Shown: positions 5,268 to 23,502 of the stretch, piece after piece
Layout: the number at the start of each line of letters is the position of its first letter
Position numbering within the stretch: position 1 is the first letter of the stretch
Assembly (NCBI RefSeq): GCF_963518325.1
Contig: NZ_CAUQJB010000007.1
Coordinates: 66,388-90,387 of the forward strand
Length of the DNA stretch: 24,000 nucleotides
Direction: 5' to 3'
Source of the DNA: an uncultured Vagococcus sp.
GTDB taxonomy: Bacteria; Bacillota; Bacilli; Lactobacillales; Vagococcaceae
Program-made: the position numbers and the translations under genes
Notes under the pieces: generated by a model
Told to the model about the DNA's origin: nothing
The model's database searches: none
What the model saw: the letters and a program-made list of their open reading frames with translations, nothing else

Positions 5268-5276
5268 GAGAATGAT

Positions 5277-5585
5277 ATGGAGACACAGGAAAAAGATATA
5301 TTTCAACTTATTGCCATTTCAGGGGACAGTCGAGGGGCGGCATTTGCGGCTTTGCGACTTGCTCGTAAAAAAAAATATGATGAAGCGACGCAAAAATTAG
5401 AAGAGGCCCGTCTGAAAGCAACGGAAGCACACAATATTCAAACAGCCCTAATTACAAAAGAAATCAATGGGGACAGTGATCCAGTAACTCTTTTAGGCGT
5501 CCATGCTCAAGATCATTTGATGACGACACTGTTGGCACGAGATTTAATTGAAGAACTAATTATGTATATGGAAGAACGAGACTAA
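5277..5585 (+). CDS. PTS lactose/cellobiose-family EIIA component
   Basis: 102 aa. It starts 9 nt after the regulator stop, with a TAGGAGAA SD. Three-helix-bundle type sequence with the conserved VHAQDHLM phospho-His region. Confidence 0.9.
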   Translation: METQEKDIFQLIAISGDSRGAAFAALRLARKKKYDEATQKLEEARLKATEAHNIQTALITKEINGDSDPVTLLGVHAQDHLMTTLLARDLIEELIMYMEERD

Positions 5586-5602
5586 CCAAAGGAGGAAATA
5601 AC

Positions 5603-5929
5603 ATGAACATTTTATTAGTATGTGCAGGTGGTTTTTCAACCACAATGATGATGGAAGAAATGAAGAAAGTAATCAATGGGTCGAAAAAATTGGATATTGC
5701 TGATTTTCCAATGGAAGCAGTAGGTGTAGATCGACTGCCAAACGTGATTGATGATTATGACGTGATTTTAGTTGGTCCCCAGTTAAGTCATAAATTTGAT
5801 TATGTCAAAGGGGAAGGGGATCAACGAAACATCCCAACGGTCTTATTAACATCGGAAATATATGGGGCAATGGATGGGGCAACAGTCGTGAAACAAGCGA
5901 TTTTAGCTTACCGTAAAAATCAAGCTTAG
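5603..5929 (+). CDS. PTS lactose/cellobiose-family EIIB component
   Basis: 108 aa with an AAAGGAGG SD. The N-terminus MNILLVCAGGFSTTMM carries the active-site Cys typical of cellobiose-type EIIB. Confidence 0.9.
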   Translation: MNILLVCAGGFSTTMMMEEMKKVINGSKKLDIADFPMEAVGVDRLPNVIDDYDVILVGPQLSHKFDYVKGEGDQRNIPTVLLTSEIYGAMDGATVVKQAILAYRKNQA

Positions 5930-5940
5930 GAGGTAACAAG

Positions 5941-7281: not shown

Positions 7282-8369
7282 TGATAACTAACCAAATAAA
7301 TCCTAGAGTAGAAAAACTTCAACATTATTTATCAACCCAATCGATTGAGGGGCTGTTAGTAACCGATAAGCCTAATAAATTTTATTTATCAGGCTTTAAT
7401 GGAACAGATGTCGCTCTTTTAATCACCAAAGACCTTTCGTGGATTATTGCTGATGGTCGTTATTTGGAAGAAATAAAAAAAGAAGTAACAGGTTTTAGTG
7501 TGATTGATAATAAGGGAGATATGATTAAGACGCTTGTCTCCCTTGTTAAAGACCAACAGTTAACTTGTTTAGCTGTTGAGGCAGATAATCTAACCCTTAA
7601 GTGGTTTTTGGAGATGCAACATGGATTAAAGGGGCAATGTGACCTCTTTCCGACACAACATATTATTGAGCAGTTACGAATGATTAAAGAGCCAGCTGAA
7701 TTAGCTATTTTAAAAAAGGCAGCTGAACTAACTGATTTGGTCTATGATCATTGTTTGAAAATTACTAAACCAGGAATGACAGAAGCCATGCTTGCGGTTG
7801 AACTTGAACATTATATGAGACAGCAAGGGGCAGATGGTTGTTCATTCGAAACAATCGTTGCTTCTGGTAACCGTAGTGCGATGCCTCATGGTCATGCCAG
7901 TCATAAGTTGTTGGCTAAAGGTGAGCTAGTGACCGTCGATTTCGGCGTAAGGTATCAGGGGTATTATACTGATATGACGCGAACTTTTGCAATAGGCCAG
8001 GTTATGCCTGAATTGAAACATATCTACAAAATTGTCAATCTGGCTGGCTTAAAAGCTTTTGGGGAATTAAAGGCAGGCATGACAACAGGTGATTTGGATC
8101 AGATTTGCCGCGATTATATATATCAGGCGGGTTATGGTGATTATTATAATCATGGTACCGGTCATGGGATTGGCTTAAGTTGCCATGAATATCCCTATAT
8201 TAAAACTGGCTTAACAGAGGTGTTGCAGAAAGAAATGACGTTTACGATTGAACCGGGTATTTATTTGCCCGATTATGGTGGTGTTAGAATTGAAGATGAT
8301 ATTTATTTGAATAGTCAAGGATATGGAGAAAGTTTGACTAAATCAACGAGAGATTGGATTGAATTGTAG
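7281..8369 (+). CDS. M24B-family Xaa-Pro aminopeptidase/dipeptidase (PepP/PepQ/YpdF-like)
   Basis: 362 aa. The ATG overlaps the EIIC stop (TAATG, 7279-7283). All pita-bread metal ligand motifs are present: VTVDFG...YYTDMTRT, HGTGHGIGL, FTIEPGIY, VRIEDDI. Confidence 0.92.
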   Translation: MITNQINPRVEKLQHYLSTQSIEGLLVTDKPNKFYLSGFNGTDVALLITKDLSWIIADGRYLEEIKKEVTGFSVIDNKGDMIKTLVSLVKDQQLTCLAVEADNLTLKWFLEMQHGLKGQCDLFPTQHIIEQLRMIKEPAELAILKKAAELTDLVYDHCLKITKPGMTEAMLAVELEHYMRQQGADGCSFETIVASGNRSAMPHGHASHKLLAKGELVTVDFGVRYQGYYTDMTRTFAIGQVMPELKHIYKIVNLAGLKAFGELKAGMTTGDLDQICRDYIYQAGYGDYYNHGTGHGIGLSCHEYPYIKTGLTEVLQKEMTFTIEPGIYLPDYGGVRIEDDIYLNSQGYGESLTKSTRDWIEL

Positions 8370-9403
8370 TGAAAAAACAATTAATAGACCTCATGAAAGC
8401 TGATGCTATTGCCGGTAGAGAGCAGGAAGTACGAAGAGTCATTATCGATTATTTGACCCCTTTTGATATCAAGTTAGAAAGAGATGGTTATGGCAATCAA
8501 TATGCTTCATTAACTAATGGCAGCCAAAAACCTAAACTAATGATCATCGCCCATATGGATGAAGTCGGATTTATGGTCAAGCATATAACCGCAGATGGGT
8601 TTATTTATACTCAACCTTTTGGCGGCTGGAATTCCCAAGTTGTTTTGGGCCAACGGGTGACGGTGACGAGTAGACAAAAGGGAAGCAAGTATCGAGGTGT
8701 TTTTGGAACGACAGCAAAGAAAGGGCAGAACCCTCAAGAACCAGTGACATTAGGAGAAATGTACGTAGACATTGGCGCCAAAAATCAGAGTGAAGTCGAA
8801 GCTTTGGGCATTCAAGTAGGTGACATGATTACGCCTTCTGGTGAGATCGAGGAGTTACCTAATAATTTGATTTTAGGCAAAGCTTTGGATGATCGGTCAG
8901 GTTGTGTAATTTTACTGGAAGTTTTAAATCGTTTATCAAAAGAAGCACATTTAAATGTGGAAGTTGTTGGAGTCTTTTCTGCTCAAGAGGAAGTCGGTAC
9001 CCGAGGTAGTTTTGTTGCCGCTGCTAAAATCAACCCTTATGAAGCCTTAATTTTAGATGTGGCCACAGCCAAAGACACACCAGGAGCCGATCAATATCAA
9101 AATCGTTGCTTAGGACATGGCCCTGGCATTGTTTGGTTTGATAAGACGGCAGTCTCAGATGTCAAGCTAAGTGATAGAGTGATAGCCATTGCAAAAAAAG
9201 AGGGGATTCCCTTCCAGCACGACGTCTTTGCTGGTGGTGGAACAGATGCAGGTTCGGTACAATTAGCAGGTGGTGGCGTGCCAACTGTCGGATTAAGTCT
9301 CGGTGTTCGCTATTGTCATAGCGGCTCTTCTATCGCTAGTTTAGTTGATATGGAGGCATCAGTCAATCTAATCGTGGCTTATGTAAAATCAATTAATAGA
9401 TAA
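8369..9403 (+). CDS. M42-family aminopeptidase (FrvX/YpdE/PepA/CelM-like)
   Basis: 344 aa. The GTG start overlaps the M24 stop (TAGTG, 8367-8371). M42 motifs are present: AHMDEVGFMV, ALDDRSGC, SAQEEVGTRG, and a C-terminal CHS region. Confidence 0.92.
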   Translation: MKKQLIDLMKADAIAGREQEVRRVIIDYLTPFDIKLERDGYGNQYASLTNGSQKPKLMIIAHMDEVGFMVKHITADGFIYTQPFGGWNSQVVLGQRVTVTSRQKGSKYRGVFGTTAKKGQNPQEPVTLGEMYVDIGAKNQSEVEALGIQVGDMITPSGEIEELPNNLILGKALDDRSGCVILLEVLNRLSKEAHLNVEVVGVFSAQEEVGTRGSFVAAAKINPYEALILDVATAKDTPGADQYQNRCLGHGPGIVWFDKTAVSDVKLSDRVIAIAKKEGIPFQHDVFAGGGTDAGSVQLAGGGVPTVGLSLGVRYCHSGSSIASLVDMEASVNLIVAYVKSINR

Positions 9404-9492: not shown

Positions 9493-10251
9493 CTATTTCT
9501 TGAAGACAGCATAATATAAGCCACCAACCATCACGGCGCCGCCAACAATATTTCCCAGATAGACTGGAATAAAGTTAAGGATAAACTCAGTCCACGTGGC
9601 ACCATTTTCAAAAATAGCTGCGGCAATGATAAACATATTAGCGACACTATGCTGAAAACCTATGGCCACAAAGGTTGTGACAGGAAACCAAATTCCTAAG
9701 TACTTGCCAACCGTATCTTTTGTTCCGTAGCATAACCAAACCGATAGCCCAACGAACCAATTGCAACCAATTCCTGAGACAAAAGCTTGTAGAAAATTGA
9801 CATTAATTTTTGCAGATGCAACTCTTAAGGTTTCATGCAAATAGTCGCCTGTGGCTGTTAAACCAACAATATGGCCAAAAAAATAGGCAACAAATAACGC
9901 ACCAACACTATTAGCCAGAGTAATGATCAAGAAATTCAAGCTTAATTCTTTGGTGGAGACCTTTTTATCAAACCAAGCAGTCGCCACTACAAACATATTG
10001 CCCGTAATTAATTCGCCGCCGCCTAGTAAAATAACGATTAAACCAATTGGGAAAATAGCAGCACCAATCAGACTGGCAAAGCTACCCCATTGTTCCGCAA
10101 TGGAAGAAATAACGCGAATATACGCCAAATAGCCCAAGGAAATCATGGCGCCTCCAATAAACCCTAAGATTAATTTTGCTTTTAGGGGTTTGTTGACTTT
10201 AGCAACCCCTTTTTTGATAGTGATGGCTAGTGTCTCTTCAAGTGAGTACAT
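9493..10251 (-). CDS. Formate/nitrite transporter (FNT) family channel, FocA/NirC-like
   Basis: 252 aa, six TM. FNT signature regions GGGELITGNMF and GFQHSVANMF are present. TGGAGG SD 7 nt upstream. Lies directly downstream of hutU on the same strand. Confidence 0.9.
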   Translation of the reverse strand: MYSLEETLAITIKKGVAKVNKPLKAKLILGFIGGAMISLGYLAYIRVISSIAEQWGSFASLIGAAIFPIGLIVILLGGGELITGNMFVVATAWFDKKVSTKELSLNFLIITLANSVGALFVAYFFGHIVGLTATGDYLHETLRVASAKINVNFLQAFVSGIGCNWFVGLSVWLCYGTKDTVGKYLGIWFPVTTFVAIGFQHSVANMFIIAAAIFENGATWTEFILNFIPVYLGNIVGGAVMVGGLYYAVFKK

Positions 10252-10319: not shown

Positions 10320-12344
10320 TTAGTTGAATAAGTCAGCCACTGCTTTATGGACTTTTTCTTCATCTGTTAGATAAGGAATCGTGATGTGATCCGTGCCCGC
10401 TCTCATCTCATTGTATTCAATCGATGTTTCAATGGCGTGCTCGTTTCGTGCCCAGCTTCTACGGGCGACACCGCCCATTGTATCCCAAGCAATCGCTGAT
10501 TTTATAATCTCATCACACAACTCGCTACCATCTAAGACCATTCCAAAGCCACCGTTTACTGACTTGCCGATGCCAACACCGCCACCATTATGAAGGGCAA
10601 TTAAGCTCATACCTCTTGCAGCATTACCAGCGAAACATTGAGTGGCCATATCAGCGGTGACATTGCTTCCGTCTTTAATATTAGAGGTTTCTCTAAATGG
10701 TGAATCCGTGCCTGAGACATCGTGGTGATCCCGACCTAACATGACGGGCCCGATTTTTCCATCACGAATCAATTCATTAAACTTCAAGGCAATGTTAATG
10801 CGACCCATAGCGTCCTGATAAAGGATACGTGCTTCGGTACCAACTACTAGCTGATTTTTTTCAGCGTCGCGAATCCAATTATAATTATCTCGGTCCTGAT
10901 AACGGCGGTTTGGATCAATGGCTTCCATGGCTGCTTTGTCAGTCGCCATTAAATCTTCATGCTTGCCGCTTAGACAGACCCAACGGAACGGACCGTATCC
11001 ATAATCGAAGAGCATTGGTCCCATGATATCTTCCACATAAGAAGGCCAGATAAAGCCGTCTTTATCATCGACACCATTTTTTGAGATTTCTTTGATACCT
11101 GAGTCGTAGATTGCTTTCATAAAGGAATTACCGTAGTCAAAGAAATAGGTTCCTTTGGCTGTTAATGATTTAATGACATTAAAATGACGTTCCAATGTCT
11201 TATCAACCAAAAATCTAAATTGTGCCTGATTATCTGCTAATAACTGAGTTCGCTTATCGAAGGTGATGCCGATAGGGCAGTAACCGCCTTCATGGACATT
11301 ATGGCAAGAGGTTTGATCCGATAACAAATCGATGTGAACATCGTGCTGATCCATGTATTCTAGCAACTCAACAATATTACCATGGTAAGCGATCGACGTT
11401 GCTTCCTTTTTATCTAGATAGGTTTTGGCAATGGCCACAGCTTCTTCAGGCGTTTTGGCTAAATTGCTAATCCAACCTTGCTCGAGGCGGGTATCGATCC
11501 GGGACATGTCCACTTCAGCGACGATGGTTACAGAGTTGGCAATTTCACCAGCTTTTCCTTGAGCACCACTCATGCCCCCTAAGCCAGAAGTAACAAACAG
11601 TTTGCCAGCCAAGTCACCTTCATCTGGAATACCTAATTTTAAACGACCGGCGTTAAGCAAGGTGTTGAACGTACCATGGACGATGCCTTGGGGGCCAATG
11701 TACATCCAACCACCAGCTGTCATTTGACCGTAATTAGTCACGCCCATTTGTTCTGCAATTTCCCAATCCTCAATATTATCGTATTCTCCTATTAGAAGGC
11801 CGTTAGTAATGATGACACGTGGCGCATCTTTTTTTGATTGGAACAAGCCTAAAGGATGACCAGATTCCACTACTAAGGTTTGCTCATCAGTCATTTCTTC
11901 TAAATAGCGTTTGATTAGGTGGTATTGCATCCAGTTAGAGCAAACTTGGCCGGTTTCGCCGTAAGTAACCAGTTCATAAGGATAGAGCGCCACGTCAAAG
12001 TCCAGGTTATTATCAATCATGACTTGCATAGCTTTGGCTGCCACACAATTTCCTTTGTATTCATCGATGGGTTTACCTTGGATACGTTCAGTTGGGTACC
12101 AACGATAGCCGTAAATCCGTCCTCGAGTGTTTAATTCGTTTAAAAATTCTGGAATCATTTGTTCATGGTATTTTTCTGGAATATACCGCAAGGCATTTTT
12201 TAACGCCAAGGTAGCTTGAGCTTGCGATAAACGAAAGCCCCTATCAGGTGCTCGACGGATACCTTCTTGAAATTTAGGCATATCGGGTAAGACATCCTCA
12301 AGTTTAATCGTCATGGATTTACTGATTTCTACATTGTTGATCAT
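10320..12344 (-). CDS. hutU: Urocanate hydratase (urocanase), long about 675-aa form
   Basis: 674 aa with a GGAGGAA SD. Highly conserved urocanase blocks are present: VTYGETGQV, GLGGMSGAQ (NAD site), YGQMTAGGWMYIGPQGIVHGT, GRDHHD, GGGVGIG. Confidence 0.97.
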   Translation of the reverse strand: MINNVEISKSMTIKLEDVLPDMPKFQEGIRRAPDRGFRLSQAQATLALKNALRYIPEKYHEQMIPEFLNELNTRGRIYGYRWYPTERIQGKPIDEYKGNCVAAKAMQVMIDNNLDFDVALYPYELVTYGETGQVCSNWMQYHLIKRYLEEMTDEQTLVVESGHPLGLFQSKKDAPRVIITNGLLIGEYDNIEDWEIAEQMGVTNYGQMTAGGWMYIGPQGIVHGTFNTLLNAGRLKLGIPDEGDLAGKLFVTSGLGGMSGAQGKAGEIANSVTIVAEVDMSRIDTRLEQGWISNLAKTPEEAVAIAKTYLDKKEATSIAYHGNIVELLEYMDQHDVHIDLLSDQTSCHNVHEGGYCPIGITFDKRTQLLADNQAQFRFLVDKTLERHFNVIKSLTAKGTYFFDYGNSFMKAIYDSGIKEISKNGVDDKDGFIWPSYVEDIMGPMLFDYGYGPFRWVCLSGKHEDLMATDKAAMEAIDPNRRYQDRDNYNWIRDAEKNQLVVGTEARILYQDAMGRINIALKFNELIRDGKIGPVMLGRDHHDVSGTDSPFRETSNIKDGSNVTADMATQCFAGNAARGMSLIALHNGGGVGIGKSVNGGFGMVLDGSELCDEIIKSAIAWDTMGGVARRSWARNEHAIETSIEYNEMRAGTDHITIPYLTDEEKVHKAVADLFN

Positions 12345-12399: not shown

Positions 12400-12432
12400 A
12401 TTGTAATACGAGTGAGTCAATAAAATGACTAA
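12400..12432 (-). promoter_or_regulatory. Putative activator-dependent hutU promoter: TTAGtC-N5-aTtGAC-N10-TACAAT (read on the minus strand)
   Basis: Plus strand reads attgta (12400-05), N10, gtcaat (12416-21), aaaat, gactaa (12427-32). The spacing is the same as in the exact copies at 12481 and 18775. The predicted transcription start site (TSS) is about 50 nt upstream of the hutU ATG. Confidence 0.45.
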
Positions 12433-12480: not shown

Positions 12481-12513
12481 TTAGACGGAAATTAGACTGT
12501 CTAGCCTTATAAT
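12481..12513 (+). promoter_or_regulatory. Putative activator-dependent hutI promoter: TTAGAC-N5-TTAGAC-N10-TATAAT, no -35 box
   Basis: ttagac 12481-86, ggaaa, ttagac 12492-97, tgtctagcct, tataat 12508-13. The sequence at the canonical -35 position (acggaa) does not resemble TTGACA. AAAGGTGA SD and ATG at 12544. Confidence 0.65.
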
Positions 12514-12543: not shown

Positions 12544-13809
12544 ATGTTTGCAGATAAAATTTTAGTTAATTTTAGTCAGATTTTTAGCCCAATTGATAAG
12601 GGAAGACCCTTGAGAGGGAAGGAGATGGCTGAGGCGGTCATTCTTGAAAATGGTTATATCGCCATTAAGGACGGAAAGATACTCGCAATCGGCAGTGGGG
12701 AGCCAGAGGATCAATTAAAAGGTGATTCAACAGTGATTATCGATTATTCTGGCAAACTGGCGTCTCCAGGATTAATTGATTGTCACACTCATTTAGTTTA
12801 TGGCGGTAGTCGAGAAGGAGAGTTTGCAAAAAAATTAAACGGGGTAAGTTACTTGGATATTCTGAAGGAAGGGGGCGGAATTTTAAGTACAGTCAAGGCC
12901 ACTAGAAGTGCCAGTTTTGAGACGCTATATCATAAAACGAATCGACTTTTGGATAAAATGCTGATTCATGGTGTCACAACGGTCGAAGCAAAAAGTGGTT
13001 ATGGCCTGAACTGGGAAACGGAAAAGCGGCAACTAGAAGTAACTAAAACATTAACTAAAGACCATCCAATAGACTTAATTTCAACTTTTATGGCCGCTCA
13101 CGCCATACCAGAACAGTATAAAAATAATCCCGATGAGTTTATTCAATTAATCATTGATGACATGTTGCCAATGGTTAAAGCAGAGAACTTAGCAGAGTTT
13201 TGTGATGTTTTTTGCGAGACGGGAGTTTTTACAGCGGATCAATCGAGAAAACTGTTGACTGCTGCCAAAGAAATGGGCTTTAAACTGAGAATCCATGCAG
13301 ATGAAATTGATTCAATTGGTGGGGTTGACGTTGCTGCTGATCTACATGCCTTAAGTGCGGAGCATTTAATGGCTGCAACAGACGAGGGCATTCGCAAAAT
13401 GAGTGAGGCCCATGTCATTGGAAATGTTTTGCCAGGAACTACCTTTAGTTTGATGGCAGACACCTATGCGCCTGTCAAGAAAATGCTGGAGGCTGGAATG
13501 GCCATTACGCTGTCAACGGACAGCAATCCCGGGAGTTGTCCCACAGCCAACCTACAATTTATCATGCAGTTAGGCTGTTTCAACATGAAGTTAACGCCTG
13601 TTCAGGTGTTTAATGCTGTGACGATTAATGCTGCCTATTCGGTAGCGAGAGGTCAATCAATTGGGAGTTTTGATCAAGGGAAACAAGCTGATATCGCTAT
13701 TTTTGATGCACCAAATGTGGACTACCCATTGTACTTTTTTGCCACTAATTTAGTAACGGATGTCTATAAAAATGGGGAACACGTTGTGAAAAATGAGGTT
13801 CGCCACTAG
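12544..13809 (+). CDS. hutI: Imidazolonepropionase
   Basis: 421 aa amidohydrolase-fold protein. Motifs: [16 protein letters not shown] (HxH metal site), [21 protein letters not shown], and a C-terminal KQADIAIFD. Confidence 0.95.
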
Positions 13810-13822: not shown

Positions 13823-13856
13823 AAAGCTCCATTTAAACTGTAAATGGAGCTTTTTC
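13823..13856 (+). terminator. Rho-independent terminator after hutI
   Basis: Perfect 13-bp stem aaagctccattta (13823-35) / taaatggagcttt (13841-53) with a 5-nt loop and a T-run. Confidence 0.9.
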
Positions 13857-13960: not shown

Positions 13961-16900
13961 ATGAAAGAAGGTGAGACCTTGAGTAAAGTTGTATACGGTC
14001 AATTATTTGGAAACCCTGAGATTTTTGTCGATGGGAAATTGATGCTGTTTTCATTTACTAAAATTAACGCCCTACTTTATTATATGCTTGTTAACAGGAA
14101 AGTTAGTCGTGACGAATTATCAGGTTTATTATGGCCGGATATGGATGAAAAAAATGCTAAAAAGAATTTACGCAATACGATCTATCAGGCCAATAAAAAA
14201 TTAGGAGGAGACTATATTTGTTCGCCAAACAAATTCGTCTTGAGTTTAAACGATGAGTTAACTATTACAAGTGATGTGGAACAGTTTAAAGACAATCCCA
14301 GCGATAATTTATCCCTCTATGATGATAGTTTTTTAAAAGGCTTCTATTTAAAAGATTGCGAAGAATTCGATGCATGGACAGAGAAAATGCGAAGCTTTTT
14401 TGAGAAAAAATTTCTAAATGAGTGTTTCCGCAATGTCACTCAAGACATTGAGGAAAAACGTTTTGAAATGGTTGAAAAAAAATTACAAAAGTTAATTAGT
14501 CTGGATGAGTACGATGAGCGGCACTATCAATTGCTGATGCGTTATTATTATGAGGTAGATAGACATGAAAAAGTCATCGAAGTCTTTTATCATTTGGCAG
14601 ATGTCTTAAATTCGGAACTAGGAATTGCTCCAAGCCAAGAAACTCGCGATATTTTCGAATGTTCAGTGACGATGGTTAATAAAAATTTAGTGATTAATCG
14701 GCGCTTTACCACTAAATTTTTTGGTCGCATTGAGGAAATTCAATTGTTGGAGGCAAATTTCATCAAATTTAATCACAATGAAATGTGTCAATCTGTTTTT
14801 GTGAAAGGCGATATGGGCGTCGGTAAAACTAGTTTAGTAAACCGAGTCCTAGATAACGCGCCATATTTTCATATACTGGAAACCCAATGCTACGAAGTGG
14901 AAAAGTCTTATGATTTACGAGCTTGGCGTAAAATAGTCAATCAGTTATCTCAGTTAAGTGAGCATTATGGGGTAAGGCCAATACATTGGCAGGGAACCCT
15001 TGATCGTTTTTTTCCTAATATTGAAGATCCGTCGTTGGACAGGACATTTGCAGACGACAAGCATATTGACTTAAATGCATTGTCACAATTATTAATAGAA
15101 GCCATAAGAAAAATCAGTCACTTTAAGAAACTCGTCTTGGTTTTTGAAAATATTCAATGGTTAGATGATATGAGCTTTCAACTGTTGGTCAGTGTTATGC
15201 TGCATCTGAAAAATAAAGAAGGGATCTTTATTTTTACCTCGCGGAACGACATGAATTTAAGGCTTGTGAATTTTTTAACGACAATCAATTGTTATGAGTT
15301 ATTAATCAGCCTTACTCTGGAGCCTTTAACATTGGCCGAAACTCAGGAATTTTCAAGAAATGAACTTCTCAATCAAACACCTTCCCCTGATACCTTAGGG
15401 GAGTTATACCAATTAACGGAAGGGAATTTTTTCTTTTTAACTGAGTATATTAACATGATACGAAATAACGATCAGATTGATATTATGACCGTACGAATGC
15501 AAGATGCTTTGAGAAATCGATTTAGTAGTCTAACAGATGTTGAAATGAAAGTGGTTGAAGTGGTGGCTTACTTTTATGATTATGTTCCTGTGGAGCTATT
15601 GGCGGAAATTGTTAATTTACCTGCGTTTGAATTGGCACAGGCAGTTGAACATTTAGTAAAAGAAAACATTTTATTGGAACTTTTTGTTAGTGACGAAGTC
15701 ATGATTTGTTTTAGTCACAATCGTTTGAGGGAATTTATTTACATGAATCAGATGGTTTCAAAGAAACTCCTTTTGCATAAGGAGATTGCTTGTTTAATGG
15801 AAAAATCTCGAATGAGCAATATTAACGATCATTTGATTTTCGCAAAAATTGCCTATCATTATGAGCAGGCAAAAGAGTGGTTAAAATCGTTGGATTTTCA
15901 GTTACGATATTTGCAAGGTTACTTTAAATTCTATCACGAATTATTTCCGATCAATGCCATTCCAAATGATAGGTTGATGACAAACCCTGATCTTTGGAAA
16001 AAAGGAACCATCAAAGAGTTTGATAAAATTCGGCAAAAATTAGAGGAATTAGCACCTGTTTATCAAGATGATCACAGGTACTTATTATTGGCAATTCGCT
16101 TTTATAATATGGAGGGGCGCTATTTCATTCGTCAGGGAAAATACGAAAAAGGTCTTGAAGACATTCATTACGTCATTCGTGTTTCAAAAGAATTAAATGA
16201 CAGTCACTTTTTATTAGAAGGTTATAAACAAATGATTTATTATTGCATTCAAATTGATAATAGTCGTGAAATGCATGACTACCTTGAATTAGGACTGAAT
16301 GAGGCAATACGCAGCAATAATCATGAGTCTATTGGGATATTATTACGTTTAAAGGGCTTGAACTATTTAATGACAGGTGACTTATACATGGCGGAGCGTC
16401 AATTAACCGAATCAATCAATACCTTCTCTATCACGGATACGATTAAGGATAAATACAGCATTAATATTGCAGCAGCCTATGACTATTTAGCTGAGATTAG
16501 AAGTATTGAAGAAAATTACCCAGAAGCAATTAGACTACAGCAATTAGCGATCGATCTCTGCGAAAACAAAGGGGCATATTCAAGTCTATCTGTCTTTTAT
16601 ATTAATATGGGTGTTATTCTTTTTGGGAATGAGCAGTACTCGGAAGCAAAAATATATTTTGACAAAGCCTATAAGATTTACGAGGAGTTTTCTTCATTGT
16701 GGAAGAGACCCCAGTTAGACGCCTATATGTCTTTAATCAACCTTTATCAAGGGAACTATCAAGCTGTTTTTGTCTATTTAATCAGCTCGAAAAAATACAT
16801 GGAACGATTCGCTAATCCACGAGATATTGGGACTATTTATTTCGCTGAAGCGATGATTAAACGGCAGTTAGTTAAAGAAAACCATCAAGATAATAAGCTT

Positions 16901-17038
16901 TGGGAAATGCTTGATCAAGATGAATTATTTTATTTCAGAAAAGCCTTGGAGTATTTAAGCCCCAACCGAAATAAACTAGAGACAAATTTATTAAAAAGAA
17001 CCTTTAAACCTGAAGAATTAATAAATGGACTTAGATGA
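13961..17038 (+). CDS. Large SARP/AfsR-like transcriptional regulator: OmpR-type winged helix, BTAD, P-loop STAND (AAA/NB-ARC-like) ATPase and C-terminal TPR-like repeats
   Basis: 1025 aa. The winged-helix segment is INALLYYMLVNRKVSRDELSGLLWPDMDEKNAKKNLRNTIYQANKKLG. The BTAD segment is EYDERHYQLLMRYYYEVDRHEKVIEVFYHLADVLNSELGIAPSQETRDIF. Walker A is VKGDMGVGKTSL and Walker B-like is LVLVFENIQWLDDMS. The C-terminal about 400 aa is helical-repeat with Y/A/L periodicity (AAAYDYLAEI, EAIRLQQLAI, AKIYFDKAYKIYEE). The start could instead be the TTG 18 nt downstream. Confidence 0.85.
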   Translation: MKEGETLSKVVYGQLFGNPEIFVDGKLMLFSFTKINALLYYMLVNRKVSRDELSGLLWPDMDEKNAKKNLRNTIYQANKKLGGDYICSPNKFVLSLNDELTITSDVEQFKDNPSDNLSLYDDSFLKGFYLKDCEEFDAWTEKMRSFFEKKFLNECFRNVTQDIEEKRFEMVEKKLQKLISLDEYDERHYQLLMRYYYEVDRHEKVIEVFYHLADVLNSELGIAPSQETRDIFECSVTMVNKNLVINRRFTTKFFGRIEEIQLLEANFIKFNHNEMCQSVFVKGDMGVGKTSLVNRVLDNAPYFHILETQCYEVEKSYDLRAWRKIVNQLSQLSEHYGVRPIHWQGTLDRFFPNIEDPSLDRTFADDKHIDLNALSQLLIEAIRKISHFKKLVLVFENIQWLDDMSFQLLVSVMLHLKNKEGIFIFTSRNDMNLRLVNFLTTINCYELLISLTLEPLTLAETQEFSRNELLNQTPSPDTLGELYQLTEGNFFFLTEYINMIRNNDQIDIMTVRMQDALRNRFSSLTDVEMKVVEVVAYFYDYVPVELLAEIVNLPAFELAQAVEHLVKENILLELFVSDEVMICFSHNRLREFIYMNQMVSKKLLLHKEIACLMEKSRMSNINDHLIFAKIAYHYEQAKEWLKSLDFQLRYLQGYFKFYHELFPINAIPNDRLMTNPDLWKKGTIKEFDKIRQKLEELAPVYQDDHRYLLLAIRFYNMEGRYFIRQGKYEKGLEDIHYVIRVSKELNDSHFLLEGYKQMIYYCIQIDNSREMHDYLELGLNEAIRSNNHESIGILLRLKGLNYLMTGDLYMAERQLTESINTFSITDTIKDKYSINIAAAYDYLAEIRSIEENYPEAIRLQQLAIDLCENKGAYSSLSVFYINMGVILFGNEQYSEAKIYFDKAYKIYEEFSSLWKRPQLDAYMSLINLYQGNYQAVFVYLISSKKYMERFANPRDIGTIYFAEAMIKRQLVKENHQDNKLWEMLDQDELFYFRKALEYLSPNRNKLETNLLKRTFKPEELINGLR

Positions 17039-17080
17039 AATAAGGAACACCTCGTTTTTTACACAAGGTGTTCCTTATTT
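17038..17080. terminator. Bidirectional terminator between the convergent regulator and GlmL-like genes
   Basis: 15-bp arms aaataaggaacacct (17038-52) / aggtgttccttattt (17066-80) with a 13-nt T-rich loop. Confidence 0.75.
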
Positions 17081-17083: not shown

Positions 17084-18466
17084 TTACAAGGGAATCAAAT
17101 ATTTAGTGAGCATCCTAAGAGCTACTTGGGGGTGATGCTCTGCCAATAGTCCTAAAGATGAGACGATATATGATGAATCCAAATAAAAAGCTGGTTTTAG
17201 TGGTTTTAGGTGTTGGGTGTCGGTTTGAAGAGCTGCTTTCAAAATGTTTTTTGGTTGGGAACTATTAATAATGATACCACCAGTTCCGATTAACAGATCA
17301 ATTTGGCGTAAATCCTTTCCTTGCTGATAATACGTATCATGACGAGGGTGGCGTTCTCTTCTTGTAACACCGGCATGACGATCCATCCCAATTGACACGG
17401 CGATTTTAGCCATTAAGTTATCAAAGTCAGACTGGTCTGGAGTACTTGGAATAAAATCGGGATGCTGTTCCCTAAGTAAGCAGTTACGCCTTAATTCAGT
17501 CTCATCGTAGTGATGGTTGCCATAGATATTAAAGTAGTCTGGCCCCGCGGTCTCAAACAAGCTAACGGCAGAATAACGCATCCCTAAATCACCTTCGACC
17601 GTCCTTTTTAGAAATGGTTCAGGTAATCCCTCGTACAGTAGTTGCTGATCGCTAATACTTTCACATGCTGAATGAACATCAGTAGTGGCTCCACCAACGT
17701 CCACAAGAGTTATCTTTCCAAAGCCTGGGATCTTCCCACTGCCTTGAGATAAAAGCTTGACAGCATGGAGAACGGCCATTGGTGTGGGGATAATTGGCGA
17801 ATTACTTAGCTTAGCAATCTGATCAAAGCCTTTCCCATAGATGATTTTTTCAAAAAAAATTCGCCTTAACCTTTCTCTAGTATCTGTGGCTTGTATTAAA
17901 TTGACTTTTGGAAGCACATTTTCTGTCAAATAATAGGTTCTATTCATTAGAATACGTTTTATTTCAGGGGCTGCTAGACGGTTACCTGCCACAATAAGGG
18001 GAATATCTTTGTTTAGGTGCGTCAGCTTTTGAGCACAATCAAGAATAAAAGCAGTATTGCCTCCATCTGTGCCCCCAGTTAGAAGAATAACATCGGGATT
18101 TAATTGATTTATTTTCTGAATGTCTGCTGAAGAAAGGCTGTAGGAGAAGGTTTTTAGTATTCTTGTACCTGCTCCTAAAGCAACTTTTTTTGCAGCAGCA
18201 GTTGTTAAGCTATGGGTAAGACCGATAGCAACCATGTTAAAGCCGCCAAAAGCAGATGAGCAGATTAGGGTTTGATGATTAGGCAGCTGTTCTATCTTTA
18301 AATCTTCAGCCATTTTAGTGATTAGTTCTTGATAGCTATCGAATAAATTAGTCTTACTTTGAGTGTTTACCGTAATATGAGACATGATTAATTCACTTTC
18401 AAGATCAAGTAAAATAGCTTTCGTGTAAGTACTGCCAAAATCGATGGTTAAAACATTGTTTGTCAT
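17084..18466 (-). CDS. GlmL/MutL-family (glutamate mutase accessory or reactivase-like) ASKHA-fold ATPase, with no mutase partner in the window
   Basis: 460 aa with an AAAGGAG SD. ASKHA phosphate-1 motif is LTIDFGSTYTKAI, phosphate-2 is LVDVGGATTDVHS and the adenosine motif is LLIGTGGII. A LLTGGTDGGN segment is also present. Length and motifs fit the GlmL/MutL (and more distantly EutA) group as I remember it. Not verified by search. Confidence 0.7.
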   Translation of the reverse strand: MTNNVLTIDFGSTYTKAILLDLESELIMSHITVNTQSKTNLFDSYQELITKMAEDLKIEQLPNHQTLICSSAFGGFNMVAIGLTHSLTTAAAKKVALGAGTRILKTFSYSLSSADIQKINQLNPDVILLTGGTDGGNTAFILDCAQKLTHLNKDIPLIVAGNRLAAPEIKRILMNRTYYLTENVLPKVNLIQATDTRERLRRIFFEKIIYGKGFDQIAKLSNSPIIPTPMAVLHAVKLLSQGSGKIPGFGKITLVDVGGATTDVHSACESISDQQLLYEGLPEPFLKRTVEGDLGMRYSAVSLFETAGPDYFNIYGNHHYDETELRRNCLLREQHPDFIPSTPDQSDFDNLMAKIAVSIGMDRHAGVTRRERHPRHDTYYQQGKDLRQIDLLIGTGGIIINSSQPKNILKAALQTDTQHLKPLKPAFYLDSSYIVSSLGLLAEHHPQVALRMLTKYLIPL

Positions 18467-18536
18467 TGTAAATCTCCTTTCGTTAAATGAAAATTAAATG
18501 AGAAAATAATTAGTTTTTAATAAGATTTTAGAGTCT

Positions 18537-18569
18537 AATAATAAATAAAAGAATCTAAAAAACGTCAAA
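18537..18569 (-). promoter_or_regulatory. Degenerate proximal copy of the repeat-promoter architecture: TTtGAC-N5-TTAGAt-N10-ATTATT (minus strand)
   Basis: Plus strand reads aataat (18537-42), N10, atctaa (18553-58), aaaac, gtcaaa (18564-69). The spacing is identical to the exact copies. The predicted TSS is about 60 nt upstream of the GlmL-like ATG. Confidence 0.3.
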
Positions 18570-18774: not shown

Positions 18775-18807
18775 ATTATATACCAGGTGCGTCTAAAAAA
18801 TGTCTAA
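18775..18807 (-). promoter_or_regulatory. Exact second copy of TTAGAC-N5-TTAGAC-N10-TATAAT, on the minus strand and pointing toward the GlmL-like gene
   Basis: Plus strand reads attata (18775-80), taccaggtgc, gtctaa (18791-96), aaaat, gtctaa (18802-07). The reverse complement gives TTAGAC ATTTT TTAGAC GCACCTGGTA TATAAT. It lies about 300 nt upstream of the ATG at 18466. Confidence 0.6.
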
Positions 18808-18900: not shown

Positions 18901-18929
18901 TTGACACGAGTTTGCCTGAGTGGTAATTT
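18901..18929 (+). promoter_or_regulatory. Sigma-A type promoter for the folT-ftcD-fchA-fhs-hutD operon (TTGACA-17-TGgTAATTT)
   Basis: ttgaca at 18901-06, a 17-nt spacer ending in TGg (extended -10), and taattt at 18924-29. Confidence 0.55.
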
Positions 18930-19042
18930 GAGAGTGTAGTAGGAAAATAGAAGATTGAAACTAAAAAGAAAGTCACTGTTTGTTCGTGAATAAAGTGTTC
19001 CATGAGTTAGGTGAATTTCTTGAAAAGGAGAGAGTATGTAAG

Positions 19043-19570
19043 TTGAAACGTACAGTTGGTTCAAAAATAAGTGCTAAAGACATTGCCTTATTAGGATTAT
19101 TAGTGGCGATTGAGGTCATTCTAACTCGATTTTTTGCAATCGAAAATTCATTTGTTAGGATTAGTTTCGCTTTTTTACCCTTAATGTTAATGGGGCATTT
19201 ATTTGGACCATGGCTGGCAGGCCTTGGCGGTATCGTTGGTGATATTGTTGGCATGCTAATTTTCCCAAAAGCCATGTTTTTTCCGGGATTTACATTTAAC
19301 GCTTTTCTTATTCCCTTTCTATACGGCGTGATGTTTTACCGAAAAGATATCAATTTGAAACGAATTGTGATGGCCCAATTACTTATTATGGGAATGGTTA
19401 GTCTAGTTTTAACGCCAATCTGGCTGAATATTCTATTCAAGATTCCTATCTTTGAGTTATTGCCTGTCAGACTATTGAAAGAGGGCATTCTTTTTCCAAT
19501 AAATGTCTTCGTCAGTTATTGTCTGTTTAATAAGACCTCCCTTGTGACCGTGATGGAGATGGGAAAGTAA
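19043..19570 (+). CDS. folT: ECF-transporter substrate-specific (S) component, folate family (FolT-like)
   Basis: The track ORF starts at a TTG at 18980. I prefer the TTG at 19043 (MKRTVGSKISAKD...) because AAAGGAGAGAG lies 8-9 nt upstream. The product is about 175 aa with 5-6 TM and has the size and N-terminal layout of an S component (DIALLGLLVAIEVILTRF). It sits directly upstream of three THF-dependent enzymes. Confidence 0.72.
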   Translation: MKRTVGSKISAKDIALLGLLVAIEVILTRFFAIENSFVRISFAFLPLMLMGHLFGPWLAGLGGIVGDIVGMLIFPKAMFFPGFTFNAFLIPFLYGVMFYRKDINLKRIVMAQLLIMGMVSLVLTPIWLNILFKIPIFELLPVRLLKEGILFPINVFVSYCLFNKTSLVTVMEMGK

Positions 19571-19645: not shown

Positions 19646-20545
19646 ATGGCAAAGTTAGTAGAATGTATTCCGAATTTTAGTGAAGGTAGAGATGAAAGCG
19701 TTATAAAGGGGTTAGTTGAGGTCGCTAAAAGTGTCAGTGGCGTTACCTTATTGGATCATTCATCAGATCCCAGTCATAATCGCAGTGTGTTCACTTTAGT
19801 CGGCGATGTTGAAGGGATTCAGGAAGTTGCCTTCAAATTAGTCAGTTATGCCACGCAACACATTGATATGACTAAACAAACAGGTGAACATCCACGGATG
19901 GGAGCAACCGACGTGGTTCCTTTTGTCCCAATTAAAGATATTACCACAGAAGAATGCGTGGAAATATCTAAAAAGGTAGCGAAACGAATTAACGATGAGT
20001 TAGATATTCCGATTTTCCTTTATGAAGAATCTGCGTCTTCACCTGATCGAGTCAACTTGGCACGTGTGAGAAAAGGACAATTTGAAGGAATGCCTGAAAA
20101 ACTAATTCAAGACGAATGGGCCCCTGATTTCGGTAGCAGAAACATTCATCCAACTGCTGGCGTGACGGCCGTAGGCGCAAGAATGCCCCTAGTAGCCTTT
20201 AATGTCAACTTAGACACATCTGATATTACCATTGCCAACAAGATTGCTAAAATTGTTCGCGGTTCTGGTGGCGGGTTTAAGTATTGTAAAGGAATCGGCG
20301 TTATGTTAGAAGACCGCAATATTGCGCAAGTTTCCATGAATATGGTGAATTTTGAAGGAACCCCATTGTATCGTGCGTTTGAGACGATTCGTTTCGAAGC
20401 GAAACGTTATGGCGTTTCAATCATTGGGAGTGAGGTGATTGGTTTAACTCCTGCTAAAGCATTAATTGATACAGCTGAGTATTATTTGCAAATTGAAGAT
20501 TTCGATTATGGAAAACAAGTATTAGAAAATCACTTATTGAATTAG
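19646..20545 (+). CDS. ftcD: Glutamate formimidoyltransferase (formiminotransferase domain only)
   Basis: 299 aa with a GAAAGGAAG SD. The hallmark N-terminus is LVECIPNFSEGRD. Also present: HNRSVFTLVG, HPRMGATDVVPFVP and GARMPLVAFNVNL. Confidence 0.93.
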   Translation: MAKLVECIPNFSEGRDESVIKGLVEVAKSVSGVTLLDHSSDPSHNRSVFTLVGDVEGIQEVAFKLVSYATQHIDMTKQTGEHPRMGATDVVPFVPIKDITTEECVEISKKVAKRINDELDIPIFLYEESASSPDRVNLARVRKGQFEGMPEKLIQDEWAPDFGSRNIHPTAGVTAVGARMPLVAFNVNLDTSDITIANKIAKIVRGSGGGFKYCKGIGVMLEDRNIAQVSMNMVNFEGTPLYRAFETIRFEAKRYGVSIIGSEVIGLTPAKALIDTAEYYLQIEDFDYGKQVLENHLLN

Positions 20546-20564: not shown

Positions 20565-21191
20565 ATGGAATTAGTTGAGTTGAAAGTTAACGAATTTATG
20601 CATGTTTTAGGCTCTGATGAACCGGCACCCGGTGGTGGCTCTGCCTCTGCATTAGCCGCAGCTATGGGAATTTCATTAGTTAAAATGGTAGCAGAACTAA
20701 CTACTGGCAAGAAAAAATACGCTGAGCATGAAACGATGATTCAAGAAGTGTTAGTTGAAGCGACTGACCTACAAGCGATCCTGTTAGATGCCATTGATAA
20801 AGATACCCAAGCATTTAATGTTGTTTCAGCGGTTTTTTCAATGCCTAAAGAAACAGATGAAGAAAAAACTGCAAGGCGAGAAGCAATGCAGTTGGCTTTA
20901 AAAGGGGCAGCTATCTCACCATATGAAATGATGGAAACAATTGTCAGAGGGCTTAAAGTAGTAAAAAAAGCCGTTGGAAAATCGAATGTTAATGCAGCCA
21001 GTGATTTAGGTGTAGCAGCGTTAAACTTGAAGTCTGGCCTACAAGGGGCTTGGTTAAATGTGTTAATTAACCTATCAGGAATTAAAGAAGAGGCGTTTGT
21101 TGACGGCTATCGCGGTAATGGTCAGGCATTGTTAGAAGAAGGATGTCTGTTAGCCGATGAGATTTATGAAGAAATAGTGACCTTAGTTTAG
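20565..21191 (+). CDS. fchA: Formimidoyltetrahydrofolate cyclodeaminase
   Basis: 208 aa with a GGAAGAGGAG SD. The hallmark motif EPAPGGGSASALAAAMG is present near the N-terminus, and the protein is all-helical. Confidence 0.9.
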   Translation: MELVELKVNEFMHVLGSDEPAPGGGSASALAAAMGISLVKMVAELTTGKKKYAEHETMIQEVLVEATDLQAILLDAIDKDTQAFNVVSAVFSMPKETDEEKTARREAMQLALKGAAISPYEMMETIVRGLKVVKKAVGKSNVNAASDLGVAALNLKSGLQGAWLNVLINLSGIKEEAFVDGYRGNGQALLEEGCLLADEIYEEIVTLV

Positions 21192-21216: not shown

Positions 21217-22893
21217 ATGACTTATTTATCAGATATTGAAATTGCCAATCAAGTAAAAATGAAACCGATCAAAAACGTGGCTGATAGCTTAAATTTAGAG
21301 GAAGAGGACTATCAGTTATATGGAAAATACAAAGCTAAATTAGATGCCCTAGAGTTAGAAAAAATGAAGGATCAAAAAGATGGCAAATTGATTTTAGTAA
21401 CAGCAATCACACCAACACCAGCCGGTGAAGGAAAAACAACCACATCAGTTGGGTTGGCAGACGGTTTTACTAAGATTGGCAAAAAAGCGATGTTGGCTCT
21501 GAGAGAACCCTCATTAGGCCCAGTTTTTGGTGTTAAAGGTGGCGCGGCAGGTGGTGGTTATGCCCAAGTTGTGCCGATGGAAGATATTAACCTTCACTTC
21601 ACTGGCGACTTCCATGCGATTGGTGCAGCCAATAATTTATTAGCTGCTTTGTTGGATAATCACATCCATCATGGTAATAGTTTGCAGATTGACAGCCGAC
21701 GTATTACCTGGAAACGTGTGGTTGACATGAACGACCGACAATTACGTTATATTGTGGATGGCCTCCAAGGGAAAGTGAATGGTGTTCCCCGGGAAGATGG
21801 GTATGATATTACCGTTGCTTCGGAAATAATGGCCATCTTATGTTTGGCTAACAATATTGTTGAATTAAAGGAAAAATTACGTAAAATCATTGTTGCTTAC
21901 AATTTTTCTGGCGAGCCTGTCACAGCTGGCGATTTAAAAGCTGAAGGAGCTCTTACAGCTCTGTTGAAAGAGGCCATTAATCCTAATTTGGTACAGACTT
22001 TAGAGCATACACCTGCCTTGATACACGGAGGTCCATTTGCTAATATCGCCCATGGTTGTAACAGTGTCTTAGCCACAAAAATGGCTTTAAAATATGCTGA
22101 CTATACGGTAACAGAAGCTGGCTTTGGCGCAGATTTAGGGGCTGAGAAGTTTATTGATATTAAATGCCGCTTGGCTGATATTCGACCTGATGCAGTTGTC
22201 TTAGTGGCTACTATCCGAGCCTTGAAGATGCATGGAGGTGTTCCTAAAAATGAGCTTGGTGAAGAAAACATTGATGCAGTGATCAAAGGTTTGCCAAACT
22301 TGGAAAAACACTTGGCTAATATTCAGGATGTATACGGTTTGCCAGTGGTAGTTGCTATTAATAAGTTTCCAACAGATACTCAAGCTGAATTGACAGCCGT
22401 TGAGGAAGCTTGCAAAGAACGTGGGGTGGAAGTCGTCTTATCCGAAGTCTGGGAAAAAGGTGGTAATGGTGGCGTAGCCTTGGCTGAGAAAGTCGTTGAA
22501 TTAGCTGACCGCGATAACACCTTTAGTTACGTTTATGATTTGGAAGACAGTATTGAAGAAAAACTGAACAAGATTGTCCGCAAAGTATATGGTGGGACAG
22601 GTGTTGAATTAACCAAAGTAGCCCGTCGTGAAATGGCTGAATTGGAGCGTTTAGGTTTTGGGAATTTACCAATCTGTATGGCCAAAACTCAATATTCATT
22701 CTCCGATGATCCAACTTTAATCGGTGCGCCCCAGGATTTCACAGTGACCATTAAAAATATGAAAGTGTCGGCTGGAGCAGGTTTTATTGTCGCTTTAACT
22801 GGTGCGATTATGACGATGCCTGGTCTGCCTAAATCACCAGCCTCTGAACGAATCGATGTGGATGAAAATGGTGTAATCTCTGGCTTATTTTAG
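21217..22893 (+). CDS. fhs: Formate--tetrahydrofolate ligase (10-formyl-THF synthetase)
   Basis: 558 aa. Motifs: SDIEIA N-terminus, P-loop [59 protein letters not shown]. Confidence 0.97.
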
Positions 22894-22902: not shown

Positions 22903-23502
22903 ATGAAAATAAGGACTATTAGCAAAAAGGACTATCGTGTTTCAACTTGGAGTGGGGGAGAGACTCAGGAATTGTTTCTCTTCCCAGTCCAGGGAACTTA
23001 TCAAATTGGTCAGTTTGATGTTAGACTATCCAGTGCCACTGTTGAATTGGCAGAAAGTCTTTTCACAAGTCTGCCTGGCTATCAAAGAGTCATTATGTCC
23101 TTGGATAACCCTTTAAGTTTGAGTCATCAAGGGAATGATAGTAAAAGGATGGTAGATTTAATGCCTTTTATCTCCCACCATTTTTCAGGAGAGGATCAAA
23201 CAACGTCAATTGGTAAGTGCAGAGATTTTAATTTGATTTATCGTGATGGTTTAGCTGGCGAATTAGTGGCTTGCTATCAAAAGGAGTCAGTCGTGATTAA
23301 GTCCGACGAGTTTGTCTTAGTTTATGCCCTTGAAGAAATTAGAGTCGAAATTTTTCAAGGACATCAGGTGACACATGCTCATTTAAAGAGAGGTAACAGT
23401 GTGGTTATTGAAGAGGTTACTGAGAATTGTTGGTTAGTGTTAACAGCCAAGAACAGAACAGAGAAACCAATAGCAGTCGTGGCAAGTATTAGCGAAAGTT
23501 AA
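22903..23502 (+). CDS. hutD: HutD/Ves-family protein (cupin-like, DUF886)
   Basis: 199 aa with an AGGGGTGA SD. The N-terminal STWSGGETQELFLFP matches the W-x-G-G-x-T-x-E signature of HutD. The hut context supports the call. Confidence 0.65.
   Translation: MKIRTISKKDYRVSTWSGGETQELFLFPVQGTYQIGQFDVRLSSATVELAESLFTSLPGYQRVIMSLDNPLSLSHQGNDSKRMVDLMPFISHHFSGEDQTTSIGKCRDFNLIYRDGLAGELVACYQKESVVIKSDEFVLVYALEEIRVEIFQGHQVTHAHLKRGNSVVIEEVTENCWLVLTAKNRTEKPIAVVASISES

Follow-up and report, generated by a model that had tools for sequence, protein, structure and literature searches.

A GlmL/MutL-family ATPase gene of a Vagococcus histidine-utilisation cluster belongs to a distinct, hut-linked branch of its family

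We analysed a 24,000-nucleotide stretch of DNA (referred to below as the window) from an uncultured Vagococcus sp., and consider here a gene at 17084-18466 on its minus strand that encodes a 460-aa ASKHA ATPase of the GlmL/MutL family. By its sequence this glmL-like gene is a GlmL-family ATPase gene; in its gene context it is unconnected to glutamate mutase, lying within a complete FtcD-type histidine-utilisation (hut) cluster, and its hut-linked relatives form a distinct, hut-dedicated and dispensable clade of the family. The cluster extends from a formate/nitrite-family (FNT) channel, probably for formate export (9493-10251, minus strand; PF01226, E 1e-71), through hutD, after which an amino-acid permease begins. 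To the left of the glmL-like gene, hutU (10320-12344, minus strand) encodes a urocanate hydratase of the long, 674-aa class (TIGR01228, 431 bits; three urocanase Pfam domains), hutI (12544-13809, plus strand) encodes imidazolonepropionase (TIGR01224, 454 bits), and the plus-strand gene at 13961-17038 encodes a 1025-aa STAND regulator in which Pfam recognises BTAD, AAA_16 and TPR domains. This regulator gene converges with the glmL-like gene upon a putative bidirectional terminator hairpin, picked out by inspection of the sequence (17039-17079; AATAAGGAACACC / GGTGTTCCTTATT).

To the right, all on the plus strand, lie folT, for the S component of a folate-family energy-coupling factor (ECF) transporter (19040-19570; TIGR04518, 143 bits); ftcD, for glutamate formimidoyltransferase (19646-20545; TIGR02024, 418 bits); a gene for an FTCD_C-type formimino-tetrahydrofolate (formimino-THF) cyclodeaminase / methenyl-THF cyclohydrolase (20565-21191; PF04961, E 6e-64); fhs, an open reading frame for formate-tetrahydrofolate ligase whose orthologues are called PF01268 FTHFS (21217-22893); and hutD (22903-23502; PF05962, E 5e-23). 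The mechanically delimited reading frame of folT opens at 18980, and the likely start is the TTG at 19040, orthologues being 172-175 aa long. The initial annotation of this DNA had remarked that no B12-dependent mutase or cobalamin gene is present, and this is borne out by a Pfam scan of open reading frames of at least 80 aa from the window, which detected no B12-binding, GlmS, GlmE, methylaspartase or cobalamin gene; an Rfam scan of the window likewise returned neither a riboswitch nor a leader RNA.

The glmL-like reading frame starts with ATG, preceded at 7-8 nt by what appears on inspection to be a ribosome-binding site, AAAGGAG (18474-18479, minus strand). Its product carries the motifs DFGSTYTK (residues 8-15), DVGGATTDVHS (255-265) and GTGGII (393-398), on which, together with its length, the initial annotation had based the assignment to GlmL/MutL-type ASKHA ATPases. 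Length and motifs are as described there, and the profile searches that it had called for gave full-length matches above the cutoffs: the MutL model PF13941 covers the protein end to end (model positions 1-450 of 450; E 1.5e-138, 462.8 bits), TIGR01319 scores 397.5 bits against a cutoff of 204, and the equivalog model NF040745 ('accessory_GlmL') is passed with 509.3 bits against a cutoff of 475. The match to PF13941 is lower than that of canonical GlmL (608.6 bits), and the Or-4 model NF040744 reaches 283.5 bits against a cutoff of 600, with residues 44-456 aligned. Aligned end to end, the protein is 42-43% identical to GlmL of Clostridium cochlearium and C. tetanomorphum. This identity between the hut-linked clade and genuine GlmL is not below that found between distant mutase-linked members of the family, which explains why the equivalog model accepts hut-clade proteins. 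The ASKHA phosphate-1, phosphate-2 and adenosine motifs are all present in the window protein, as are the family motifs SSAxGG, GGTDGGN, TVEGDLGM, RH and GKDL. An alignment of 99 sequences from the hut-linked and mutase-linked clades contains 66 invariant columns, which include these five family motifs and all nucleotide-binding motifs.

The regulatory sequences of the gene tie it to the surrounding pathway. A 33-nt direct-repeat element, TTAGAC-N5-TTAGAC-N10-TATAAT, occurs as two exact copies in the window, at 12481-12513 (plus strand) and 18807-18775 (minus strand), against a chance expectation of 0.04 matches in shuffled sequence with 3 mismatches allowed. The first copy is placed as the hutI promoter, 31 nt upstream of the hutI ATG, and is conserved in a related Vagococcus locus (L001); the second (18775-18807, minus strand), with ATTTT between the repeats, would form a distal promoter, P1, of the glmL-like gene. 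The earlier claim that hutI and the glmL-like gene have this element in common is thus correct. Its placement upstream of the latter needs qualification, as the exact copy lies not immediately ahead of the gene but about 310 nt from the ATG, and it is a degenerate copy that lies closer, about 87 nt upstream. This proximal box, TTTGAC-GTTTT-TTAGAT (18553-18569, minus strand), provides a second repeat pair and is followed by a weak -10 sequence, ATTATT. When the leaders of four Vagococcus loci are aligned, only the two boxes are conserved within the roughly 300-nt leader, the proximal one as an invariant ATTTGACG...TAGAT island; the P1 architecture recurs as TTTGAC-N5-TTTGAC-N10-TATAAT or TATACT in L001 and L002, and the repeats are kept at a different spacing in L003. 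A degenerate element of the same kind, TTAGTC-N5-ATTGAC-N10-TACAAT (12400-12432, minus strand), identified by inspection without statistical scoring, is a candidate hutU promoter, with the counterpart ATAGTC-N5-ATTGAC-N10-TACAAT in L001. The folT-ftcD operon is probably transcribed from a canonical sigma-70-type promoter, TTGACA-N17-TAATTT (18901-18929, plus strand), which is conserved in L001 and L002.

Activators of the Streptomyces antibiotic regulatory protein (SARP)/BTAD type recognise hexamers that recur with an 11-bp period, the last of them ending about 10 bp ahead of the -10 sequence. Because the 11-bp-period repeats described here fit this layout, the adjacent BTAD-STAND activator is the obvious candidate for their recognition and, judging from the sequences, most likely binds them. 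The 1025-aa protein seems to be dedicated to hut regulation: Peptoniphilus, Fusobacterium and Anaerosphaera encode full-length orthologues (30-33% identity over about 1010 aa) in their hut clusters, others are encoded in those of Isobaculum and Vagococcus, and in a survey of 79 sampled metagenome loci (L091-L169) orthologues at 26-59% identity were hut-linked in nearly all cases. A protein of about 320 aa without a Pfam match, which we call X, is encoded directly upstream of the regulator gene in every hut cluster of the Tissierellia/Fusobacterium type (L008, 5956-6924; L087, 5972-6925; L089, 5943-6917; L173, 6014-6964); it is 38-49% identical between species and has no counterpart in the window. 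In the window, a hairpin with a perfect 13-bp stem (AAAGCTCCATTTA...TAAATGGAGCTTT; 13823-13853) lies between hutI and the regulator gene, suggesting that hutI transcription is at least partly terminated ahead of the regulator gene.

The hut-linked arrangement is not peculiar to the window. In the neighbourhood comparison that the initial annotation had set beforehand, all 14 clade members whose contexts were examined (the window and L001, L002, L003, L008, L080, L087, L088, L089, L090 and L170-L173) lie in hut/FtcD clusters, spread over three phylum-level groups, and in none of these 14 contexts is glmS, glmE or the methylaspartase gene (Mal) found near the gene. Three further Vagococcus lineages (L001-L003) encode hut-linked proteins with 64, 57 and 46% identity to that of the window, and Isobaculum melis (L170) shares the window's cluster architecture. 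In Listeria aquatica (L088) the gene is the penultimate of a hutU-hutI-ftcD-FTCD_C-fhs-hutD-permease-hutH operon, and a short locus (L172) has the order GlmL, hutI, hutU. The order X-regulator-GlmL-hutU, followed by more hut genes, is found in Peptoniphilus hominis (L008), Fusobacterium necrophorum (L087), Anaerosphaera multitolerans (L089) and L173. Operons with the folate branch are represented by a Peptoniphilus sp. (L080; hutH-ftcD-fhs-FTCD_C-GlmL) and by a second Anaerosphaera copy (L090) and L171 (both folD-ftcD-fhs-FTCD_C-GlmL). In these last two, a CntK_N-like (histidine-racemase-like) gene comes next (L090, 11390-12193; L171, 5845-6702), the domain being unconfirmed by Pfam at E<=0.001 for L090.

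For comparison, we sampled 80 loci of the PF13941 family, effectively at random and with one genome per species; the canonical operon of C. cochlearium was recovered as a control. In about 73 of the 80, glmS and/or glmE adjoin the gene, usually together with methylaspartase. Some of the sampled loci extend the range of contexts in other directions. One, from a Peptoniphilaceae metagenome-assembled genome (L023, 11669-14254), places a mutase-clade GlmL beside a corrinoid protein (B12-binding plus B12-binding_2) rather than glutamate mutase, along with three URO-D/MtaA-like methyltransferases, and represents another cobalamin context for the family. In L047 (12510-14165) the GlmL-like gene adjoins that of a 551-aa protein with an N-terminal B12-binding domain, and two octopine-dehydrogenase-like genes and a D-Ala-D-Ala-ligase-like ATP-grasp gene are also present. 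Eleven loci, mostly proteobacterial (L014, L026, L031, L057, L061, L063, L071, L076, L079, L084 and L085), combine glmS-glmL with a GlmE-like gene whose product shares only 35-43% identity with C. cochlearium GlmE, and lack a nearby methylaspartase gene; their mutases may differ in specificity.

The separation seen in gene context is matched in the phylogeny, which the initial annotation had proposed as a check against mutase-linked GlmL. In a neighbour-joining (NJ) tree, the hut-linked proteins are monophyletic (bootstrap 73/100, for the first ten members of known context against 74 others), and in a 227-sequence NJ tree (14 hut-linked proteins, 74 others and 139 cluster representatives) no mutase-linked member falls inside the hut clade. 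Among 1.84 billion representatives, clustering at 50% identity yields only about 449 clusters for the family as a whole; of the 140 full-length, best-scoring representatives that were placed in the tree, 13 belong to the hut clade. At ten positions where conservation within the mutase clade is 94-100%, the hut clade is relaxed, and Val84 and Gly376 are never retained in it; the window protein deviates at nine of the ten (F73, F76, T84, T101, C144, L200, S270, S272 and H376), and six (73, 76, 84, 101, 134 and 144) lie inside an insert domain described below. The hut-associated branch is small and previously undescribed, and the finding is more general than the initial annotation knew; no mention of a hut-linked GlmL/MutL form was found in the open literature searched. 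Since the branch is always in hut clusters and never beside glutamate mutase, its members are probably over-annotated under the database name 'methylaspartate mutase accessory protein GlmL'. Public names of hut-clade members (P0077, P0021) also include 'DNA mismatch repair protein MutL', applied to the F. necrophorum protein and as a UniRef name for that of Anaerosphaera; for the F. necrophorum protein this is simply wrong, a misannotation by name collision. Two long homologues, P0010 (588 aa) and P0026 (562 aa), were considered as domain fusions and rejected, as they contain exact internal duplications of 50-125 residues and are most likely assembly artefacts.

Within its cluster the gene behaves as an accessory component. 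Between the window and L001, its nonsynonymous divergence (dN) is 0.284, compared with 0.025 for ftcD, 0.041 for hutU, 0.076 for hutI, 0.092 for folT and 0.105 for the regulator gene, that is, 3-11 times faster evolution than its neighbours; in the comparisons of the window with L002 and L003, only hutD is as fast. The ratio of dN to synonymous divergence (dS) is at most about 0.15-0.28, these values being upper bounds because dS is saturated, and indicates purifying selection on the gene. Mutase-linked GlmL likewise evolves faster than GlmE and GlmS, although less markedly. The glmL-like gene is moreover optional, as many otherwise complete hut clusters do without it: only 4 of the 79 sampled regulator-orthologue loci carry it, and clusters lacking it include complete ones of the form X-REG-hutU-hutI-FTCD_C-hutH-ftcD (REG, the regulator gene) as well as one of the form ftcD-fhs-FTCD_C...hutU-hutI-REG-hutH. 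In clusters without the gene, neither a 5-formyl-THF cycloligase nor another ATPase occupies its slot.

An AlphaFold (AF2) model of the whole protein has a predicted local distance difference test score (pLDDT) of 92.6. Set into the ASKHA fold is a flavodoxin-like alpha/beta insert (residues 55-195; 17882-18304, minus strand), for which a model of the domain alone has a pLDDT of 84.7. The top PDB matches of this separate model are cobalamin-binding domains of MetH and corrinoid proteins, interleaved with CheY-like receivers (E about 2e-4; template modelling (TM) scores 0.54-0.58), which hints that the insert may be a partner- or cofactor-facing module. We considered whether the insert mimics GlmS, and dropped this proposal, as profile-profile comparison with GlmS gave 14% probability; what remains is a fold-level resemblance to B12-binding domains, and the fold is a generic one. 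For the protein as a whole, sequence and profile searches of the PDB gave nothing significant, and no solved GlmL/MutL structure was found there. The nearest PDB structures are those of acetophenone carboxylase (Apc; 5l9w_B) and N-methylhydantoinase (9h03_A), at TM-scores of 0.35-0.39, followed by sugar and acetate kinases, with TM no higher than 0.41 in the top 50 Foldseek PDB matches. Canonical GlmL gives weak Pfam matches to Hydant_A_N and Hydantoinase_A; the corresponding Hydant_A_N match of the window protein (E 0.31) reaches 11 bits against a gathering score of 25. No hut-clade cluster examined contains a HyuB-like gene.

The reading that we prefer, tentatively and at somewhat less than an even chance, is that the hut-clade protein does not serve glutamate mutase and instead acts as an optional factor that uses ATP to maintain the hut pathway. 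The gene would be transcribed from promoters with the same 11-bp-period repeats as those of hutI and hutU, and, because the adjacent BTAD-STAND activator is the protein most likely to bind these repeats, it would be switched on together with histidine catabolism. Since all family-invariant nucleotide-binding and catalytic-looking motifs are kept, ATP would be expected to be bound and hydrolysed in the manner of mutase-linked GlmL, and the diverged flavodoxin-like insert would be the part most likely to contact a partner or ligand. By analogy to the presumed role of GlmL, the protein might keep one enzyme of the histidine to glutamate and formate pathway active, for instance by opening it so that a dead or trapped cofactor or ligand can leave. 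What we infer on this reading is the ATPase activity, the regulation by the STAND protein, and a maintenance or reactivation mechanism with its client. Candidate clients are the FtcD/FTCD_C/Fhs folate branch and urocanase. The latter binds NAD+ tightly and is alone among the hut enzymes in having so firmly attached a cofactor. Of the folate-branch enzymes, FTCD_C is encoded in 13 contexts out of 14 (the exception being the short L172 locus) and Fhs in most, but both are common to all FtcD-type clusters. An Aminotran_3 protein was considered as a partner and rejected, since it accompanies the gene in Peptoniphilus and Anaerosphaera and not in Fusobacterium, Vagococcus or Listeria.

A more specific proposal, which we regard as unlikely, is that GlmL-type ATPases are not specific to cobalamin and that the hut-clade proteins use ATP to repair, or to exchange the cofactor of, a hut enzyme that does not depend on B12; they might, for example, strip reduced or adducted NAD from urocanase. 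If true, it would supply a reactivase for a tightly bound nicotinamide cofactor and a B12-free system in which to work out what GlmL/MutL does; to our knowledge, the function of these proteins has gone unexplained for decades.

Several observations weigh against a maintenance role. The nearest solved structures are those of small-molecule-activating enzymes. The initial annotation had described GlmL/MutL as related to reactivase-type ATPases such as EutA, and this relationship could be upheld only at the level of the ASKHA superfamily, as Pfam at E<=10 gives neither a EutA nor a DDR match for the protein and DdrA/EutA are absent from the top 50 Foldseek PDB matches. No single client stands out, because the gene co-occurs with two urocanase classes sharing only about 30% identity and is also found in operons restricted to the folate branch and lacking hutU (L080, L090 and L171). 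The classes in question are the 674-aa Vagococcus/Listeria form (10320-12344 in the window) and a 584-aa form (L087, 11575-13329; L008, 11515-13269; L089, 11579-13333), the latter about 90% identical across Fusobacterium, Peptoniphilus and Anaerosphaera, a similarity that hints at a recent horizontal transfer or at extreme constraint. The hut clade has also gained almost no invariant residues of its own, which a new, conserved protein client would not predict. Finally, even for canonical GlmL the reactivase role is a presumption of the literature (PMC4682846, PMC10356863), and no paper demonstrating it was found in the literature searched.

The main rival explanation, possible and yet in our judgement doubtful, takes the protein for a small-molecule enzyme, a hydantoinase-A-like ATP-dependent kinase that would activate the amide or enol oxygen of a labile by-product for salvage; the substrates proposed are 5-formyl-THF (from methenyl-THF), 5-oxoproline (from glutamate) and hydantoin- or imidazolone-propionate derivatives. 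Its best PDB neighbours, 5l9w_B and 9h03_A and then the sugar and acetate kinases, speak for such an enzyme, as do the weak hydantoinase matches of canonical GlmL and the constant linkage of the gene to FtcD/FTCD_C/Fhs; the roughly 66 invariant columns (among them TVEGDLGM, RH and GKDL) look like an active site rather than a chaperone surface, and the pattern of presence and absence fits an optional metabolite-repair enzyme. The TM-scores of 0.35-0.39 are nonetheless low, a HyuB-type partner subunit is encoded in no cluster, and no cycloligase for 5-formyl-THF substitutes for the gene where it is missing. Folate or oxoproline salvage would, moreover, leave the near-invariable glmS-glmE or B12-binding-protein context of the rest of the family unexplained, and evolution as fast as that observed is unusual for a catalytic enzyme. 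On another reading the protein would cooperate with the BTAD-STAND hut activator, making, destroying or presenting the inducer or acting as an ATP-dependent co- or anti-activator; in favour of this, the gene evolves as fast as the other poorly understood modulator, hutD. A partnership with the regulator, which the initial annotation had listed among several roles, draws on the direct adjacency of the regulator gene in 8 of the 14 contexts, on stop and start codons that overlap or abut in Anaerosphaera, Peptoniphilus and L173, and on the two regulator-type boxes ahead of the gene in Vagococcus. It is weakened by the survey, in which only 4 of 79 regulator-orthologue loci carry the gene and complete hut clusters occur without it, and by six hut-clade contexts with no regulator nearby (L003, L080, L088, L090, L171 and L172); both genes being hut-specific, their adjacency may reflect shared cluster membership, and we consider the partnership quite improbable.

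Still less probable is a relocated but true glutamate mutase accessory protein, in an organism that would ferment histidine by way of glutamate and methylaspartate with a mutase encoded elsewhere. The view taken here covers 24 kb of a 154-kb contig, the protein passes the NCBIfam equivalog cutoff for GlmL, and some organisms, such as the Wohlfahrtiimonas of L044, have hut and mutase genes side by side. In almost all sampled mutase loci, however, that of L044 included, glmL sits between glmS and glmE; the hut-linked proteins form their own clade, from which residues invariant in the mutase clade have been lost; and the two Anaerosphaera copies are both of the hut type. Peptoniphilus, in the classical biochemistry of Buckel and Barker, reportedly ferments glutamate by the hydroxyglutarate route. 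A search for a second, mutase-type GlmL copy in F. necrophorum returned named matches only from F. gastrosuis and Cetobacterium. That the gene is a decaying, functionless remnant carried along in the cluster has very little probability indeed: it is, with hutD, the fastest-evolving gene of the cluster and is often missing from related ones, but the reading frame is full-length in 14 of 14 contexts, none of the family-invariant motifs is disrupted, dN falls far short of the saturated dS, and the gene has conserved promoter boxes of its own.

The remainder of the window contains a phosphotransferase system (PTS) operon, two peptidases, RidA and membrane proteins. The PTS operon is of the lactose/cellobiose type (3279-9403; PRD/Mga-like regulator, EIIA, EIIB and EIIC), with genes for an M24 (Xaa-Pro-type) peptidase and an M42 aminopeptidase directly after it; such a pairing of sugar transport with peptidases is unusual.

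The significance of the hut-linked branch lies in part in what it says about the family. GlmL/MutL has been named a glutamate mutase reactivase only by analogy, and a coherent branch fixed in hut clusters of Firmicutes and Fusobacteria that contain no B12 enzyme implies that cobalamin chemistry is not the only setting in which the activity of the family can be employed. That the gene is optional and regulated with the pathway also suggests that anaerobic histidine catabolism includes a maintenance or salvage step not recognised so far. The pathway matters for gut and pathogenic bacteria, among them Fusobacterium necrophorum and Peptoniphilus.

Among characterised systems, GlmL/MutL of C. cochlearium and C. 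tetanomorphum is the closest, having the same family, length, fold, ASKHA motifs and roughly 66 invariant columns as the window protein. In contrast to that clostridial gene, the window gene is not located between glmS and glmE, has no B12 gene nearby and belongs to a separate clade, and its product, unlike mutase-linked GlmL, is changed at nine of ten near-invariant positions and is encoded behind a promoter element shared with hutI. Or-4 (NF040744) is likewise an offshoot of the GlmL family tied to another amino-acid pathway, ornithine degradation; it is found with a B12-dependent aminomutase, whereas the window gene has no B12 enzyme encoded near it. DdrAB/PduGH and EutA are ASKHA-superfamily ATPases encoded beside their client enzymes, and provide the functional model usually borrowed for GlmL (PMC10356863). 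Between these and the window protein, no similarity of sequence or structure beyond the superfamily was detected, and the hut pathway offers no cobalamin-dependent client. The ATP-binding subunits of hydantoinase A, oxoprolinase and acetophenone carboxylase (PF01968, PF05378) furnish the nearest solved structures, and differ from the window protein in that the TM-scores are only 0.35-0.39, there is no HyuB-type partner, and the flavodoxin-like insert is specific to GlmL. The regulator, for its part, resembles SARP/AfsR-type activators in its BTAD, NTPase and TPR domains and in its probable target, hexamer repeats with an 11-bp period that end about 10 bp before the -10 hexamer; those activators govern antibiotic synthesis in actinomycetes, whereas the window regulator and its orthologues appear to govern histidine catabolism in Firmicutes and Fusobacteria.

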